A stretch of 6,771 nt of DNA from a virus. Its lineage: Duplodnaviria; Heunggongvirae; Uroviricota; Caudoviricetes. The stretch covers positions 1 through 6,771 of IMG/VR virus record IMGVR_UViG_2778261503_000003; one strand, written 5' to 3'. The position numbers and the translations under genes are program-made. Position 1 is the stretch's first letter; the number at the start of each line of letters is the position of its first letter. Below, piece by piece: positions 1 to 6,771 of the stretch. The notes beneath the pieces are model-generated. The model saw nothing but the letters and a program-made list of their open reading frames with translations, made no database searches and was not told the origin of the DNA.

Positions 1-77
1 AGCTGATAGAAACAGAAGCCACTGGAGCACCTCAAAAACACCATCATACACTAAATCAGTAAGTTGGCAGCATCACC
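1..77 (-). mobile_element. IS1 terminal fragment: inverted-repeat end plus the first codons of insA; the element continues beyond the window start
   Basis: Reverse complement of 1-77 reads GGTGATGCTGCCAACTTACTGATTTAGTGTATGATGGTGTTTTTGAGGTGCTCCAGTGGCTTCTGTTTCTATCAGCT, which I recognise as the IS1 left end; the insA GTG start lies at 22 on the minus strand (GTG GCT TCT GTT TCT ATC AGC = M A S V S I S). The match stops abruptly after 77. Confidence 0.85.
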
Positions 78-529
78 TACGTTGTAAATGGTTACAGGTA
101 GCACTTTGTTATTGAGCATGATGCCTGTGTGAGTCAGTGTAAATATACTTTCAGGAGGTAAGAAAGCATCCGATTGATACCAGATTATTAATTTTATTTT
201 ACTCCATATGACTGAAAAAGATATTCCGCATGATGGCTGGATAACTGTATCAATCACAATCCACTTCATTTGGTTTCCTTGTTTATGCCTTGCTGGTGAT
301 GTCCTGAAAAGTATAAATGATATTTTTGAATGTAAACCATAGAGCAGAATTATTTTTCTGATGTTGTTTATTGTTTATTTAAATGCAGGGTGGTTTATAT
401 CTCGTCTTGTAGTTTATCCATGCATATCTGCTTGATAATCAGGTTTTTATTTAAGGTATAGTTTTGTGTTTTTTCTGTATTACATGTCAGGTATTTTAAA
501 GAATTATTTTTCAGATAGTGGAAAGAACC

Positions 530-718
530 ATGGCATTTAAACACTATGATGTTGTCAGGGCGGCGCCGCCGTCAGATCTTGCGGAAAAGCTGACACATAA
601 ACTGAAAGAGGGCTGGCAGCCGTTTGGTAGTCCGGTGGCCATAACCCCTTATACCCTGATGCAGGCGATTGCAGCAGAAGGTGATGTGGTGGTCAGTGGT
701 GCAACTGAGCCGGAGTGA
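530..718 (+). CDS. Small conserved lambdoid late-region protein, 62 aa, possibly DUF1737-like
   Basis: ORF track 518..718; the first ATG is at 530 (MAFKHYDVV...), preceded by GGAAAG. Soluble, with a ...EGWQPFGSPVA... motif that resembles small phage DUF1737 proteins as I remember them. The family label is uncertain. Confidence 0.55.
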   Translation: MAFKHYDVVRAAPPSDLAEKLTHKLKEGWQPFGSPVAITPYTLMQAIAAEGDVVVSGATEPE

Positions 719-762
719 TACTACGTCATCGTACTGGCCCGGCATTCCAGGCCATAAAAGAC

Positions 763-862
763 AGTCTGGCAGTGGGACTAAATGCACTGACGCTGACGGA
801 TATTACCAAAAATGCAACGTATGGCGTTGAGATAGAAAGTCTGGCGCTGGAGATAAATGCAC
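763..862 (+). repeat. Imperfect 25-bp direct repeat, two copies (763-787 and 838-862), 75 bp apart
   Basis: AGTCTGGCAGTGGGACTAAATGCAC versus AGTCTGGCGCTGGAGATAAATGCAC, 20 of 25 identical; both share the TAAATGCAC core. Confidence 0.5.
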
Positions 863-959
863 CGGCATCATCATAAAAAGTGAGCCAGTCAAATGGAAGG
901 TATCGTTAAACTCACCGGTAGTGTCAGTGGGTCGTCTGAGACGCTTGCATGAGTTATCA

Positions 960-992
960 GAGCCATCAGTAGTTAACTGGTGGCTTTTTTAT
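960..992 (+). terminator. Intrinsic-terminator-like hairpin and T-tract about 35 bp upstream of the holin start; candidate late terminator (tR'-like)
   Basis: Stem 960-969 (GAGCCATCAG) pairs with 977-986 (CTGGTGGCTT) with two G-U wobbles, 7-nt loop, followed by a run of six T. Confidence 0.45.
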
Positions 993-1025
993 TGTTGTCA
1001 GCTTCCGGATAACGGGAGACGGGGT

Positions 1026-1241
1026 ATGGACCAGATGGAAAAAATCACAACAGGTGTGTCATACACCACGTCAGCGGTGGGAACGGGCTACTGGTTCCTG
1101 CAGTTGCTGGACAGGGTTTCCCCGTCTCAGTGGGCGGCAATAGGCGTGCTGGGAAGTCTGCTGTTTGGGCTGCTGACATATCTGACTAACCTGTATTTCA
1201 AAATCAGAGAGGACCGTCGTAAGGCGGCACGGGGAGAGTAA
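1026..1241 (+). CDS. S: Class II holin (pinholin, phage 21 S-like), 71 aa, with dual-start motif
   Basis: [71 protein letters not shown] is near-identical in pattern to S21/EssD as remembered. Two TMDs, the first weakly hydrophobic; Met1 and Met4 give the antiholin/holin dual start; basic C-terminus. The GTG-initiated extension from 921 is rejected. Confidence 0.9.
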
Positions 1242-1245
1242 TTCA

Positions 1246-1590
1246 ATGACTCAAAACTATGAACTGATTGTGAAAGGGATCCGCAATTTTGAGAATACAG
1301 TTACGGTAACTTTAGCGTTACGGGACAAAAAACGCTTTGACGGTGAAATTTTAGACCTGGACATCTCGCTGGACCGTGTTGAAGGTGCCGCGCTGGAGTT
1401 TTATGAGGCAGCAGCCAGAAGGAGCATCAGACAGGTCTTCCTGGATGTTGCTGCCGGGTTATGTGAAGGGGATGAGCAGTCACCGGAAAAGCGCCCCATA
1501 ATTTTAGAGGCGCAGGGTGTGTGGATAACCTACAAAGGAAAACTGCCGGGAAGAATTACTGGTTCACTGAAGACTCCGCCGAAATGGTAA
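1246..1590 (+). CDS. Hypothetical 114-aa soluble protein between holin and endolysin
   Basis: ATG at 1246 lies 5 nt after the holin stop, with GGGGAGAG upstream. No TM segment. No confident family recognition; may correspond to the ydfR-position gene of Qin-type prophages. Confidence 0.55.
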   Translation: MTQNYELIVKGIRNFENTVTVTLALRDKKRFDGEILDLDISLDRVEGAALEFYEAAARRSIRQVFLDVAAGLCEGDEQSPEKRPIILEAQGVWITYKGKLPGRITGSLKTPPKW

Positions 1591-1828
1591 TTTCACCAGC
1601 ATATTTTTCTTCCAGTAATACCGCCAGCCACTTGAAAGAATTTTGTTGTTGCTGGGACCATTTGGGGTTGAGTGATTCAAGCTGGAGCGATGCCAGTGTT
1701 GGTTGCATTTGTTCCTTGGGAATTGAGAATGCCAGATATGAAAATGCGACAGTAAGGGCATTTACATCATCCCGAAGCTTGGAAATGCAGTCGAGCAACT
1801 CCTGTAGAGAAATGGTGCTATTGTCCAT
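1556..1828 (-). CDS. Hypothetical 90-aa protein encoded antisense to the lysis operon
   Basis: Minus-strand ATG at 1828 is preceded by AGAGAGGATTGTTT (GAGG with 7-nt spacing). A candidate -10 TACAAT (plus 1843-1848) and -35 TTGAAT (plus 1868-1873) lie upstream. The 3' end overlaps the 114-aa ORF by 35 bp. The alternative plus-frame ORF 1521..1853 is Cys/Ser-rich and does not look protein-like. Confidence 0.4.
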   Translation of the reverse strand: MDNSTISLQELLDCISKLRDDVNALTVAFSYLAFSIPKEQMQPTLASLQLESLNPKWSQQQQNSFKWLAVLLEEKYAGEITISAESSVNQ

Positions 1829-1933
1829 AAACAATCCTCTCTATTGTATTTAACTATTCCTTGCCTGATTCAACAGGCCGGGACAGATAAACATATCCAG
1901 GGTTCAGAAACCGATAAATCCTGATAAATATCC

Positions 1934-2467
1934 ATGAACGCAAAAATCAGATACGGCCTGTCGGCTGCCGTTCTGGCACTGATTGCCGTCGGTGCGCCTG
2001 CGCCTGATATTCTCGACCAGTTTCTGGATGAAAAAGAAGGTAACCACACAACGGCATACCGCGATGGTTCCGGTATATGGACCATCTGTCGTGGTGCCAC
2101 AATGGTGGATGGTAAGCCCGTCATACCGGGAATGAGGCTGTCGAAGGAAAAATGCGACCAGGTTAACGCTATTGAACGTGATAAGGCGCTGGCATGGGTG
2201 GAGCGCAATATTAAAGTACCACTGACCGAACCACAGAAAGCGGGTATAGCGTCATTCTGTCCCTATAACATTGGCCCCGGTAAGTGTTTCCCGTCGACGT
2301 TTTATAAGCGGCTGAATGCCGGTGATCGTAAGGGCGCATGCGAGGCGATTCGCTGGTGGATAAAAGATGGTGGGCGCGATTGCCGCATACGTTCAAATAA
2401 CTGCTATGGACAGGTTATTCGTCGTGACCAGGAAAGCGCATTAGCCTGTTGGGGGATAGATCAGTGA
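1934..2467 (+). CDS. R: SAR endolysin (T4-lysozyme-like, GH24 family)
   Basis: N-terminal Gly/Ala-rich weakly hydrophobic segment ([17 protein letters not shown]), as in signal-anchor-release endolysins. Catalytic E-x8-D-x5-T arrangement in [16 protein letters not shown]. The stop overlaps the Rz start (GTGA). Confidence 0.9.
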
Positions 2468-2931
2468 GCAGAGTCGCAGCGATTATTTATACTCTGGTTA
2501 TCTGCACCATCGTCTGCCTGTCATGGGCTGTTAATCATTACCGCGATAACGCCATTACCTACAAAGCCCAGCGCGACAAAAATGTCAGAGAACTGAAGCT
2601 GGCGAACGCGGCAATTACTGACATGCAGATGCGTCAGCGTGATGTTGCTGCGCTCGATGCAAAATACACGAAGGAGTTAGCTGATGCGAAAGCTGAAAAT
2701 GATGCTCTTCTGCGGAAGCTTGATAATGGTGGCAGGGTGCTCGTCAAAGGAAAATGCCCTGTGCCATCCTCAGCCGAAACCTCCAGCGCCTCCGGCATGG
2801 GCAATGATGCCACCGTCGAACTCTCTCCAGTTGCTGGACGAAACGTTCTCGATATCCGGGACGGAATTATCCGCGACCAAACAGCACTGAGAACGCTTCA
2901 GGAATACATTAGGACGCAATGCCTTCGATGA
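2464..2931 (+). CDS. Rz: Rz i-spanin
   Basis: From GTG 2464: [40 protein letters not shown]..., N-terminal TM then coiled-coil region, strongly resembling lambda/DLP12 Rz as remembered. The ORF track start at 2449 is a TTG read-back. Confidence 0.85.
2684..2890 (+). CDS. Rz1: Rz1 o-spanin lipoprotein, embedded in the +1 frame of Rz
   Basis: Strong SD AAGGAG 7 nt before ATG 2684; signal peptide with lipobox VAGC; proline-rich mature part ([11 protein letters not shown]); entirely inside Rz. Confidence 0.8.
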
Positions 2932-3105
2932 TAGCAATAATTTTACTCATCATCCTTCACATCTGGCTCTGTAGACAGGGTGGTGATCACTTCTGGAGTA
3001 AATCCAGATTAAACATCTCATTGCTGATGCTTGATATTGAGCATCTGGCGCGCAGTAAGGGGCTGCGTTGAGATAAGAGCCAGTTCATTACAAATACCAG
3101 GATTT

Positions 3106-3131
3106 AGCCTCGCATTCGCGGGGCTTTTTAT
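3106..3131 (+). terminator. Rho-independent terminator downstream of Rz/Rz1
   Basis: GC-rich 8-bp stem (AGCCTCGC / GCGGGGCT), 4-nt loop ATTC, followed by TTTTTAT. Confidence 0.6.
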
Positions 3132-3139
3132 ATCTGAAT

Positions 3140-3167
3140 TTCACAGCGCATCTCACGCGCATATTAA
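3140..3167 (+). promoter_or_regulatory. Candidate sigma70 promoter for the Rha gene
   Basis: TTCACA (3140-3145), 16-bp spacer, TATTAA (3162-3167), directly after the terminator. The spacer holds a GCGCAT direct repeat (3146-3151 and 3157-3162). Confidence 0.3.
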
Positions 3168-3273
3168 CGAGAGCCTTTCAGTAAGCGAGCCTGAGAAATG
3201 CCGTTATAGGTGGCGACCTCTCTCGGGCGGCTTTTCTGTGAGACAGGCTCACTTTCTAAAAGGTAAAGACGCT

Positions 3274-3798
3274 ATGAATAATCATTCAGTTATTCCAGCC
3301 TTCGACTTCCGAGAAATGGTGCAAGCCAAAAACGGAGAGGTCGTTACCACATCCAGAAAAATTGCCAAGTACTTCGGCAAGCGACACGGTGATGTTCTCA
3401 GGAAAATCGAGCAGGTTAAGGCTGATTGCTCGCGTGAGTTTAGCCAACGCAATTTTGCGTCGGCTGATTATATCGATGAGCAGGGCAAGGTTCGCCCGAT
3501 GTACAGCCTGACGAAAGATGGCTGGATCATGGTTGTGATGGGGTTCACCGGGAAAGCTGCTGCGGCAATCAAGGAGAGCTATATCGCAGCATTCAACTGG
3601 ATGGCAGAGCAACTGAGCCGCCGCATGGCAATTGGCGAAGAAATGCAGCACCGCTACGCCACCAAAGAAACACGCTCAAAGCTGAAAGGTACGATCGGCA
3701 GTCGGTTAATGAACGAACGGAAGAAAGAGAAGCGTGTCCTGGCTGTCGAGCATGAATACATCTTGCAGGTGACACAGCCTGAACTGCTGATTAATTGA
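3274..3798 (+). CDS. rha: Rha-family phage regulatory protein
   Basis: MNNHSVIPAF...TSRKIAKYFGKRHGDVLRKIEQ...MYSLTKDGWIMVVMGFTGKAAAAIKESYIAAFNWMAEQL matches the Rha domain pattern as I remember it. The only in-frame ATG is 3274, with AGGT 9 nt upstream; the 3031 extension runs through a terminator and is rejected. Confidence 0.8.
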   Translation: MNNHSVIPAFDFREMVQAKNGEVVTTSRKIAKYFGKRHGDVLRKIEQVKADCSREFSQRNFASADYIDEQGKVRPMYSLTKDGWIMVVMGFTGKAAAAIKESYIAAFNWMAEQLSRRMAIGEEMQHRYATKETRSKLKGTIGSRLMNERKKEKRVLAVEHEYILQVTQPELLIN

Positions 3799-3854
3799 AG
3801 ATGTCATTACAAAGCCTATCTACGGGGGGATTGATAATGGCTTATACCCTGCAC

Positions 3855-3880
3855 GGGATAACTTAACTGATATCCCTTTT
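3855..3880 (+). terminator. Weak terminator-like hairpin downstream of rha
   Basis: GGGATA (3855-3860), 10-nt loop, TATCCC (3871-3876), then TTTT (3877-3880). Confidence 0.3.
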
Positions 3881-3930
3881 AACGGATAAAGGTATTCAAG
3901 CCTGACACATCATGCGCTGTATCGTCGCCG

Positions 3931-3995
3931 TATTCCCGCATTAACCATGACCGTAGCCCGACGGGGAATTCCTTCTGCGTGAGTGTGCGGGAATA
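3931..3995. repeat. Perfect 10-bp inverted repeat (TATTCCCGCA / TGCGGGAATA) flanking a 45-bp spacer
   Basis: 3931-3940 and 3986-3995 are exact reverse complements; the spacer contains GAATTCC and G/C-rich CCCGACGGGG. Confidence 0.5.
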
Positions 3996-4100
3996 ATCAA
4001 AAACGATGCACACCGGGTTATTAACGCGTCAACTGAACGCGGGGTTGCTCTTCATGTCAGCCAGTCCGGTGCAGGGGTAGAAGAAACCGGACGTTATGGT

Positions 4101-4511
4101 TTAGTGTGGAAACATTTGTGATGTGCTCTGTATGTTTTCAGTAAAGAGTAATGAATTATCAAAGGTATAGTAATATCTTTTTTGTTCGTGGATATTTGTA
4201 ACCCACCGAAAAACTCCTGCTTTAGCAAGGTTTCTTCTGTATTCCTGAAATGTGATCTCTCTGGATTTCAGCTTATTAGAGGTCGTTTCTATAAGATGCC
4301 TATCCTTTGAAAATTTGACAGACACAATGTTTTTTAGGCCCTTTAATAACACTGTATTATCATTTTTTAATACAATATGAACATTCTCTGTGGCTAAATA
4401 GTAAATGTAATGTGAGACATTGTGACGTTTTAGCTCAGAATAAAACCATTGATAGTTTAAATCGTTTCGAACTTTATCAAATATTTGTTTAAAAATGACT
4501 ACCTGATCCAT
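4101..4511 (-). CDS. DUF1398-like protein (YdfO/YbcV-like), 136 aa, AT-rich gene
   Basis: ORF track 4101..4526; the internal ATG at 4511 (MDQVVIFKQ...) has the better SD (GAAGG, 7-nt spacing), while the 4526 ATG has none. Size and position between lysis genes and terminase match the ydfO/ybcV morons of Qin and DLP12. The family label is from memory. Confidence 0.6.
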
Positions 4512-4568
4512 AGATAAACCTTCCATGTGATATGAGGGGGCGTAGTCTGCACGATTATCTAAATTGCT

Positions 4569-4802
4569 TCAATCTGGTCTGACCTGTTTTCTGAGCAATT
4601 CAGTAATGTCACTCTTTTCTTTGTTTGCTTCAGGAGAAACTCTTTTTTCTGAGCACAGTCTCCGGCGGCAGGCTTCAATGACCCAGGCTGAGAAATTCCC
4701 GGACCCTTTTTGATCAAGAGCGATGTTAATTTGTTCAATCATTTGGTTAGGAAAGCGGATGTTGCGGGTTGTTGTTCTGCGGGTTTTGTTCTTCGTTGAC
4801 AT
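4569..4802 (-). CDS. Small ribbon-helix-helix-like protein (YnfO/YlcI-like), 77 aa
   Basis: Basic N-terminus then RNIRFPNQMIEQINIAL...GSGNFSAWVIEACRRRL, which looks like a strand-helix-loop-helix RHH pattern. It lies 57 bp upstream of, and on the same strand as, the DUF1398-like gene. Confidence 0.6.
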   Translation of the reverse strand: MSTKNKTRRTTTRNIRFPNQMIEQINIALDQKGSGNFSAWVIEACRRRLCSEKRVSPEANKEKSDITELLRKQVRPD

Positions 4803-5001
4803 GAGGTTGCCCCGTATTCAGTGTCGCTGATTTGTATTGTCTGAAGTTGTTTTTACGTTAAGTTGATGCAGATCAATTAATACGATACCTGCGTCATAAT
4901 TGATTATTTGACGTGGTTTGATGGCGTAGATGCACGTTGTGACATATAGATGATAATTATTATCATTTTGCGGGTCCTTTCCGGCGATCCGACAGGTTAC
5001 G

Positions 5002-5013
5002 GGGCGGCGACCT
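5002..5013. other. cosN: 12-nt cohesive-end site GGGCGGCGACCT, flanked by lambda-like cosQ-side and cosB-side sequence
   Basis: 4966-5048 reads TTTTGCGGGTCCTTTCCGGCGATCCGACAGGTTACG|GGGCGGCGACCT|CGCGGGTTTTCGCTATTTATGAAAATTTTCCGG, which I recognise as the lambda right end, cohesive end and first bases of the left end. The Nu1 start is 195 bp downstream, as in lambda. Confidence 0.85.
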
Positions 5014-5039
5014 CGCGGGTTTTCGCTATTTATGAAAAT

Positions 5040-5160
5040 TTTCCGGGAACCATGTCCGGTTTCTCTTCAAGTTAACTATATGAAAAATAAAAAAAGAGGT
5101 CTTCTGTGAACCGGGCATGCACAAAAAATAGACATGTAAGCCGGACATGACCGGTTTTGT
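5040..5160 (+). promoter_or_regulatory. cosB-like region with a repeated CCGG(A/G)CATG motif; putative terminase small-subunit binding sites
   Basis: CATGTCCGG (5051-5059), its reverse complement CCGGACATG (5141-5149), and a near copy CCGGGCATG (5111-5119), with AT-rich stretches between them. Confidence 0.45.
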
Positions 5161-5196
5161 TGTGATTGTGAAGTGAGAGTTTTTGCGAGGTGAGGA

Positions 5197-5706
5197 GTGG
5201 CTACGCAGACTGAAGTTGCCAGGCATTTAAGTCTGACCGATCGCCAGCTTCGCAGATTGCAGAAATTGCCGGGTGCCCCGATATCGAATAAGCGAGGGCA
5301 ACTGGATCTGGATGCCTGGCGCGATTTTTACATATCGTATCTGAGAAGAAGTAAAAACGATGTGCCTGATGGCGATAGCGAAGACGACTATGAGGAGAAA
5401 TTGCTTATTGCCAGATGGGAACTGACAGCAGAACAGGCTGTTACACAGCAGTTAAAAAATGAGGTGTCAAAAGGAAAACTTATTGATACCGGGTTCTGTA
5501 TTTTTGCTCTCAGCAAGCTGGCAATGGCGTTATCCAGTACGCTTGATTCCATCCCTTTATCCATGCAGCGACAGTTTCCTGATTTAACACCGCGCCATCT
5601 TGACCATCTGAAAACCCTTATTGCGAAGGGGGCAAATCAGTGTGCGCGGGCGGGGGATAAATTACCGGATTTACTCGATGAATATATCAGAGCAACAACT
5701 GAATAA
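5197..5706 (+). CDS. nu1: Terminase small subunit (Nu1-like)
   Basis: GTG start with GAGG 7 nt upstream; N-terminal HTH-like TQTEVARHLSLTDRQLRRL; C-terminal half (TGFCIFALSKLAMALSSTLDSIPLSMQRQFPDLTPRHLDHLK...LLDEYI) closely parallels lambda Nu1 as remembered. Confidence 0.9.
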   Translation: MATQTEVARHLSLTDRQLRRLQKLPGAPISNKRGQLDLDAWRDFYISYLRRSKNDVPDGDSEDDYEEKLLIARWELTAEQAVTQQLKNEVSKGKLIDTGFCIFALSKLAMALSSTLDSIPLSMQRQFPDLTPRHLDHLKTLIAKGANQCARAGDKLPDLLDEYIRATTE

Positions 5707-5707
5707 T

Positions 5708-6771
5708 ATGATGAGTGCTGTCACAACAGCATTACAGCCCCTGATAAGGGCATTGCCGGTGACGCCAGTTGAATGGGCTGATCAAAATTATTATCTGCCT
5801 AAAGAATCTTCATATGGTGAGGGAGAATGGAAAACGCTGCCGTTCCAGATCGCCATCATGAACAGCATGGGGAATGATCAGATCCGGACTGTTAATCTGA
5901 TTAAATCTGCCCGTGTTGGCTATACAAAGATGTTGCTGGGGGTGGTCGGGTATTTTATTGAGCATAAATCCCGAAACAGTCTGCTTTTTCAGCCCACGGA
6001 TTCTGCCGCTGAAGATTTTATGAAGTCTCACGTGGAGGCGACGATTCGGGATGTTCCCTGCCTGAAAAAACTTTCTCCATGGCTGGGGCGTAAACATCGT
6101 GACAATACTCTCACGCTGAAACGCTTTTCATCGGGTGTGGGCTTCTGGTGCCTGGGCGGCGCTGCCGCCAAAAACTACCGTGAAAAATCCGTGGACGTGG
6201 TCTGCTATGACGAACTTTCCTCGTTCGAACCGGATGTCGAAAAAGAGGGTTCGCCAACCCTGCTTGGGGATAAACGTATTGAGGGCTCTGTATGGCCCAA
6301 ATCCATTCGCGGCTCGACGCCTAAAATCAAAGGCACCTGCCAGATCGAAAAAGCGGCCAACGAGTCGGCGCATTTCATGCGTTTTTATGTGCCCTGCCCA
6401 CACTGTGGGGAGGAGCAGTATCTGAAATTTGGCGATGAATCCACGCCTTTTGGCCTTAAATGGGAGAAGGACAGCCCCGAAAGCGTTTTCTACCTCTGTG
6501 AACATCATGGCTGCGTGATCCATCAGTCTGAGCTTGACCAGAGCAACGGGCGGTGGATCTGTGAAAACACGGGGATGTGGACCCGTGACGGTCTGACGTT
6601 TTTCAGCGCCGCGGATAATGAAATTCCGCCGCCGCGCTCCATCACGTTCCATATCTGGACAGCGTACAGTCCATTCACCACCTGGGTACAGATAGTCTAT
6701 GACTGGCTGGATGCACTGAAAGATCCCAACGGCCTGAAAACCTTTGTGAACACCACGCTGGGCGAGACCTG
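5708..6771 (+). CDS. A: Terminase large subunit (gpA-like), 5' portion; runs off the window end
   Basis: ATG at 5708, 1 nt after the nu1 stop. Translation MMSAVTTALQPL...VEWADQNYYLPKESSYGEGEWKTLPFQIAIMNSMG...FWCLGGAAAKNYREKSVDV...VPCPHCGEEQYLKFGD...FVNTTLGET matches lambda gpA as remembered. Absent from the ORF track only because no stop falls in the window. Confidence 0.95.
   Translation, partial: MMSAVTTALQPLIRALPVTPVEWADQNYYLPKESSYGEGEWKTLPFQIAIMNSMGNDQIRTVNLIKSARVGYTKMLLGVVGYFIEHKSRNSLLFQPTDSAAEDFMKSHVEATIRDVPCLKKLSPWLGRKHRDNTLTLKRFSSGVGFWCLGGAAAKNYREKSVDVVCYDELSSFEPDVEKEGSPTLLGDKRIEGSVWPKSIRGSTPKIKGTCQIEKAANESAHFMRFYVPCPHCGEEQYLKFGDESTPFGLKWEKDSPESVFYLCEHHGCVIHQSELDQSNGRWICENTGMWTRDGLTFFSAADNEIPPPRSITFHIWTAYSPFTTWVQIVYDWLDALKDPNGLKTFVNTTLGET

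Follow-up and report, generated by a model that had tools for sequence, protein, structure and literature searches.

The DNA analysed here, a stretch of 6,771 bp referred to below as the window, opens with the left end of a copy of IS1. In the reading that we hold with high confidence, this element sits in iraL of a CFT073-type prophage, is visible as a stub at a contig break and has likely cost its host iraL. The AT-rich DNA beside the IS1 end belongs to a known regulatory gene and its promoter and holds no phage late switch, which corrects the earlier sequence-only reading of this region.

The IS1 end and the interrupted gene

The features at the left of the window are the following.

1..77, minus strand: left end of IS1 (IS1 nt 77–1 read on the plus strand), 77/77 identity to IS1A
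51..269, minus strand: truncated fusion ORF of 72 aa, IraL residues 1–64 followed by GDAANLLI from the IS1 IRL (ORF list; exact protein on three contigs)
78..86, no strand: TACGTTGTA, 9 bp, candidate target-site duplication if the insertion is simple; single copy in CFT073 (L001 7002–7010)
78..269, minus strand: iraL codons 1–64 of 111, identical to CFT073 C_RS06710 / WP_000871291.1
270..302, minus strand: iraL 5′ UTR, with the transcription start at window 302 (5′-RACE match)
303..402, minus strand: iraL promoter and upstream regulatory region (−1 to −100), AT-rich (29–34% GC), intact and identical to CFT073

IS1 carries the insA and insB′ frames, which give the InsAB′ transposase through a programmed −1 frameshift; insertion duplicates 8–9 bp of target at both ends of the element. 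A copy of IS1 ending at base 77 had been proposed from the letters alone, with alignment to IS1 as the check. The alignment upholds it over the full length of the stub: the reverse complement of window 1–77 is nt 1–77 of IS1A of E. coli K-12 MG1655 (77/77; NC_000913.3 19796–20563, limits taken from the annotated mobile-element feature). Plasmid records, at least 5,000 of them, contain the same 77 bp with 100% identity and assign the site to the IS1A/IS1B transposase. The terminus is window base 77, and the exact end of the element is formed by the terminal inverted repeat typical of IS1 (IRL; 23 bp, GGTGATGCTGCCAACTTACTGAT), which occupies window 77–55, equal to IS1A nt 1–23. The minus strand of the stub also carries an inward insA promoter-like site, CTGCCA-16-TATGAT, at window 70–43 (consensus promoter scan) and the insA GTG start at window 22–20, of which the first seven codons (window 22–1) are present before the contig ends. 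The transposase genes of IS1 thus point leftwards, out of the window.

A comparison with an uninterrupted homologous prophage had also been proposed, and CFT073 provides one. Window 77–6771 aligns collinearly and without gaps to CFT073 NC_004431.1 1343608–1350302, with a single mismatch; base 77 (C) agrees with CFT073 as well as with IS1, by chance. With one difference in 6,695 bp, the source isolate is, at this prophage, a near neighbour of the CFT073 lineage. The sole difference, at window 3830 (A in the window, C in CFT073), is intergenic and follows a Rha-family gene.

In CFT073 the junction falls in iraL, at 7001/7002 of the CFT073 locus (L001), inside a 336-bp minus-strand CDS of 111 codons (L001 6858–7193; C_RS06710 / WP_000871291.1) annotated as ‘anti-adapter protein IraM’. 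IS1 cuts this gene exactly between codons 64 and 65. The intact CFT073 protein belongs to the NCBIfam family NF007393 (‘anti-adapter protein IraM’), with 162 bits against a cutoff of 121, and is 62% identical to K-12 IraM. The 72-aa remnant reaches 97.6 bits over residues 1–64 and remains below that cutoff because it is truncated. In a Pfam profile search the remnant had no match at E ≤ 0.01; the contig index lists PF11183 (PmrD) for it.

The gene iraL was discovered in uropathogenic E. coli CFT073 on the ‘potB island’ as the fourth RssB anti-adaptor (Hryckowian et al. 2014, mBio, PMC4045071), with a published identity between IraL and IraM of 58.9% (PMC4045071). The interrupted gene is this characterised locus, since the published 5′-RACE sequence ACATCACCAGCAAGGCATAAACAAGGAAACCA (32 nt; PMC4045071) matches window 302–271 on the minus strand exactly and only once. 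An iraL deletion has been complemented with a fragment running from −100 to +33 (PMC4045071). Among 5,426 complete genomes, 726 have iraL uninterrupted in the CFT073-type context.

In K-12 (L008 2181–3608), iraM adjoins ycgX (DUF1398), just beyond the annotated end of e14. In the window prophage, iraL (78–269) and a ydfO-like DUF1398 gene (4101–4511) are both prophage cargo. This pairing hints that the K-12 iraM–ycgX segment may itself be an old lambdoid prophage remnant.

The broken allele and its likely consequences

The iraL gene of the window is a disrupted member of the IraM/IraL group of RssB anti-adaptors. The fusion ORF ends at a TAG at window 53–51 (IS1 nt 25–27), in the IRL region and upstream of the insA start, so no IraL–InsA fusion is made. 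In the crystal structure of RssB-bound IraM, the construct comprises residues 1–78, a β-barrel flanked by a hairpin and a C-terminal helix; the contacts with RssB include Leu75 of the terminal helix and residues 61–62 of strand β6, and IraM 1–78 still binds RssB (PDB 8TWD, PMC10844676). The remnant stops at residue 64, 14 short of 78, and so holds an incomplete PmrD-like domain (residues 1–78), without its C-terminal helix and without the Cys-rich tail. Because the truncation removes the RssB-contacting C-terminal helix, the 64-residue remnant is probably inactive, a judgement based on the IraM structure and tempered by a margin of just 14 residues relative to the active 1–78 form.

Deletion of iraL in CFT073 lowers the log-phase level of σS and halves its half-life (PMC4045071), and the IS1 insertion is likely an iraL knock-out. 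The proposed course of events begins with IS1 inserting into iraL on a CFT073-type lambdoid prophage (the ‘potB island’ prophage) and splitting codons 64/65. The iraL promoter and 5′ UTR stay whole, and the predicted product would be the 72-aa protein made of IraL 1–64 plus eight IS1-encoded residues. By analogy with the CFT073 deletion, loss of IraL function would lead to faster RssB/ClpXP-dependent turnover of σS in log phase. Transcription from the iraL promoter would run on into IS1 with the same sense as insA. IS1 activity is reportedly lowered by transcription that reads in from neighbouring promoters (Machida et al. 1983).

The isolate is thus probably without IraL, a stabiliser of RpoS during exponential growth in CFT073, and its stress and virulence phenotypes could shift slightly. 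Insertional inactivation by IS1, iraL and the prophage layout have all been described before; the finding is an ordinary one and raises no new question.

The same IS1/iraL junction, at the same base and in the same orientation, occurs in a second prophage background, represented by a contig from DRR515279 (L005 1–930 against window 51–755). The two sequences are identical over window 51–271, have nine SNPs up to 566 and diverge after about 718, beyond which L005 continues into a full NanS-p-like esterase gene. With the IS1 stub removed, L005 is 100% identical to strain 4/1-1 (L009 4001–4904) and others. A shared junction of this kind implies one of two origins, an IS1 hot spot or transfer of the disrupted allele between prophages by recombination; with both backgrounds identical over window 51–271, they cannot be separated here. 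It seems unlikely that iraL has been inactivated repeatedly and under selection at such a hot spot, in CFT073-type and 4/1-1-type backgrounds. If true, log-phase σS would be lowered by an IS element in lineages of extraintestinal E. coli, a parallel to the recurrent attenuation of rpoS that is well known.

Contig break, junction and mode of insertion

According to an exact-protein look-up with the 72-aa junction ORF, the window is the entire 6,771-bp draft contig NLUX01000066.1 of assembly GCA_002232105.1. Its start within IS1 is the place where short-read assembly stopped at a multicopy repeat, which explains the 77-bp stub. A stub length of exactly 77 would fit a de Bruijn assembler run at k = 77. 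The right contig end (window 6572–6771) lies inside the terminase large-subunit gene (5678–6771). This end segment has two copies in CFT073 and a median of two copies per genome carrying it, and since it is duplicated, the right end of the window is likewise a repeat-induced assembly break and no biological boundary. Where an IS element is cut off at the border of an analysed sequence, the cause can simply be a break in the draft assembly.

A short-read draft contig ending in a multicopy repeat would accord with an artefact, in which a chimeric assembly put the stub at the contig end and the real genome has no IS1 at the site; the recurrence of the junction makes this extremely improbable. An exact protein match places the same IS1/iraL junction in three contigs from five samples; the two of them other than the window (SRR3466132 and DRR515279) were assembled independently and are identical to the base at the junction. 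On the right of the junction the second of these carries another prophage background. A true insertion is expected to break cleanly at the very terminus of IS1, as is the case here. An assembly chimera at the junction was ruled out by this repetition in independent contigs.

The 9 bp that a simple insertion would duplicate had been named as TACGTTGTA, and this stands: the sequence directly follows the terminus and occurs once at the CFT073 site. A simple insertion predicts a far junction in which the CFT073 flank (...GAATGGTAC) plus TACGTTGTA is followed by the right end of IS1 (GGTAATGACTCC...). Taken over another span, the predicted junction would join ...ATTGAATGGTACTACGTTGTA directly to GGTAATGACTCCAACTTATTG..., giving the IS1 right end flanked by these 9 bp, and for the IS1 right-end 77-mer, which begins GGTAATGACTCCAACTTATTGATAGTG, a simple insertion puts ...TTATTGAATGGTACTACGTTGTA before the 77-mer.

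None of the 5,426 complete E. coli genomes covers at least 80% of the predicted far junction. The near junction is equally missing from them, and not one spans window 1–1000 in a single piece. A far-junction 30-mer is absent from GTDB representatives and JGI metagenomes, as is the near junction, for which a 29-mer was absent from GTDB species representatives, IMG/VR and JGI metagenomes. Because the near junction is missing from the same collections, the absence of the far junction carries no weight. The predicted far junction has no callable ORF, the remainder of iraL following the in-frame insB stop without a start codon, and a protein look-up could therefore not reach the neighbouring contig.

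On balance, a simple IS1 insertion with a 9-bp duplication is fairly probable. IS1 could instead mark the edge of an IS1-mediated deletion or inversion, by which the 3′ part of iraL, and possibly the tRNAs, pR′ and Q, would have been lost or displaced, leaving a cryptic remnant. Two related cases speak for this: in ST131 isolate 46, an IS1 copy closely follows the holin gene and borders on a truncated tail-tip gene (L002 6213–6980), and in FCI23 and TUM1857 an IS1B copy at the 3′ end of iraL abuts a truncated major capsid gene (L007 4060–4827). The failure to find the predicted far junction in the 5,426 complete genomes, GTDB and JGI adds nothing either way, given the equal absence of the near junction there. 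In both examples, however, the deletions are on the lysis and structural side, which here is intact through to the terminase gene, and simple insertion is generally known to be the commoner outcome for IS1. A rearrangement is tenable but rather unlikely. The independent IS1/IS1B copies in L002 and L007 suggest that IS1-mediated deletions erode this prophage family in several lineages.

Late transcription and comparison with known systems

The features to the right of iraL, all on the plus strand, are as follows.

530..718, plus strand: DUF1737 ORF, the 5′ remnant of a NanS-p-like SASA carbohydrate esterase gene (Pfam DUF1737, 62.5 bits)
959..987, plus strand: terminator-like hairpin and T-run, with a 12-pair stem, a 5-nt loop and a TTTATTGTTG tail; also in L002
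1026..1241, plus strand: class II holin (Pfam Phage_holin_2_1; CFT073 annotation)
1246..1590, plus strand: YdfR/DUF1327 (Pfam DUF1327; CFT073 annotation)
1934..2467, plus strand: lysozyme (Pfam Phage_lysozyme; CFT073 annotation)
2464..2931, plus strand: Rz (Pfam Phage_lysis; CFT073 annotation)
2684..2890, plus strand: Rz1, embedded in Rz (Pfam Rz1; CFT073 annotation)

The lysis module as a whole is taken here as window 1026..2931 on the plus strand. The IS1 end had been placed 440 bp upstream of the late/lysis module. That distance is correct for the ORF at 518/530, but this ORF is the DUF1737 remnant and does not belong to the lysis genes, and the holin gene begins 949 bp from the terminus. 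In CFT073 the counterpart of the DUF1737 ORF is annotated as a pseudogene (‘incomplete, missing C-terminus’); strain 4/1-1 has a full-length esterase gene of 1,854 bp at the same position (L009 4454–6307). A 53-aa ORF (window 715–876) follows the DUF1737 ORF, within the position of the esterase gene in related prophages.

The AT-rich DNA reported to the right of the IS1 end is indeed there, with 29–36% GC over about window 76–525 against 46–57% further right. Its equation with the position of Q, pR′ and tR′ fails, since 78–520 holds the 5′ half of iraL, its 5′ UTR and its promoter. The ORF list and Pfam gave no Q-like ORF in the window, 78–520 included, and no Q/pR′/tR′ module is found in that interval; a location of Q, pR′ or tR′ in 78–520 is excluded by the identity of iraL and by the position of Q in CFT073.

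The CFT073 antiterminator Q is at L001 4021–4842 (Pfam Antiterm, 183 bits), 2.2–3.0 kb left of the junction, its end being 2,159 bp away. The order to the left of iraL is Q, IS200C, tRNA-Ile, tRNA-Arg, tRNA-Arg, a DUF3927 ORF, a small pseudogene, a hairpin terminator and iraL. In the ST131 relative (L002), which is without IS200C, a lambda-pR′-like motif (TTGATT-N17-TAAATT) stands directly after the Q stop at L002 3556–3583, followed by a GC-rich tR′-like hairpin and T-run at 3631–3650; these candidates are about 1.4 kb left of the equivalent position. Their CFT073 counterpart is at about L001 4848–4942, about 2.1 kb left of the junction. The IS200C of CFT073 (about L001 4951–5654) sits immediately after the tR′-like hairpin downstream of Q and is missing from L002-type ST131 relatives.

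The suggestion that IS1 disrupted the antiterminator or the late promoter is contradicted by this map: the insertion point touches neither Q, pR′ nor tR′, all of which are 2.1–3.0 kb to the left in CFT073. An insertion in these elements, or their displacement, such that the late genes can no longer be switched on, would be favoured by the place of IS1 in the CFT073 arrangement, where it stands inside the late transcription unit, downstream of pR′ and upstream of the holin gene, and by the polarity for which IS1 is generally known. It is very unlikely, given that the interrupted sequence is iraL, that Q and the pR′/tR′-like motifs are more than 2 kb to the left in CFT073 and that no ORF in 78–520 matches Q. 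Moreover, Q-modified polymerase is terminator-resistant, and the native unit already has terminator-like sites (window 959–987 and L002 4802–4823).

Placed in iraL, IS1 separates the late promoter from the lysis genes in the CFT073 arrangement, and late transcription could conceivably be affected. The element would add 768 bp to the late transcription unit. Read-through of IS1 by Q-modified RNA polymerase would be expected, since the enzyme already has to pass several terminator-like sites in the unit. Late transcripts must also read through the hairpin at 959–987, which is consistent with Q-dependent antitermination. This strong hairpin is about 40 bp upstream of the holin start and is conserved in the ST131 relative L002.

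IS1 carries an outward −35 box, which forms a hybrid promoter when the flank supplies a correctly spaced −10 (PMC8764528, PMC9330008); an example is afaA in ST131 (PMC8764528). The suggestion that the IS1 end supplies outward transcription holds for the first half of such a promoter: TTGGCA (5/6 to consensus) faces rightwards at window 64–69 on the plus strand, in the inverted repeat, as in known IS1 hybrid promoters. The second half is inadequate, unlike in those promoters. At spacings of 16, 17 and 18 bp the flank offers AAATGG (1/6), AATGGT (3/6) and ATGGTT (1/6), so that no −35/−10 pair of the hybrid type is formed, and a consensus promoter scan gave no plus-strand promoter-like site in window 1–1300. 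A hybrid promoter at the junction was dismissed as weak on account of its best −10 of 3/6. Any such transcript would run antisense to iraL, converge with the iraL promoter and meet the hairpin and T-run at 959–987 before the holin gene. An outward promoter serving the lysis genes is thus unlikely, and constitutive transcription of the DUF1737 and lysis genes from the IS1 end is highly improbable. Hybrid promoters generated by IS1 are said to have been described by Prentki et al. (1986).

Among known systems, the element is closest to IS1 of the IS1 family, isoforms IS1A/IS1B, of E. coli and Shigella. Its terminal 77 nt, with the IRL, insA promoter and insA start, are those of K-12 IS1A, and it lies in AT-rich DNA, the usual kind of target for IS1; it differs in that the stub alone is visible, without the remainder of insA/insB′. 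The interrupted gene compares with CFT073 iraL, the paralogue of K-12 iraM. Over window 78–402 the DNA is identical to CFT073 from the 5′ half of that gene through the 5′ UTR, where the mapped start lies, to the promoter region, and the prophage context is the same, whereas the gene here is broken after codon 64 of 111.

Stx-type lambdoid prophages are known for the layout Q – tRNAs – cargo – esterase – S/R/Rz, in which iraL fills the cargo slot here. The CFT073 reference shares the gene order of these prophages (Q – pR′ – tRNA genes ileZ/argN/argO – cargo – nanS-p – S R Rz): in the collinear CFT073 prophage it runs Q, tRNA-Ile/Arg/Arg, a small ORF, iraL, the nanS-p-like esterase/DUF1737 remnant, holin, lysozyme and Rz/Rz1. 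Unlike in the Stx-type prophages, the cargo here is iraL on the opposite strand, not stx, and the esterase gene is reduced to a remnant.
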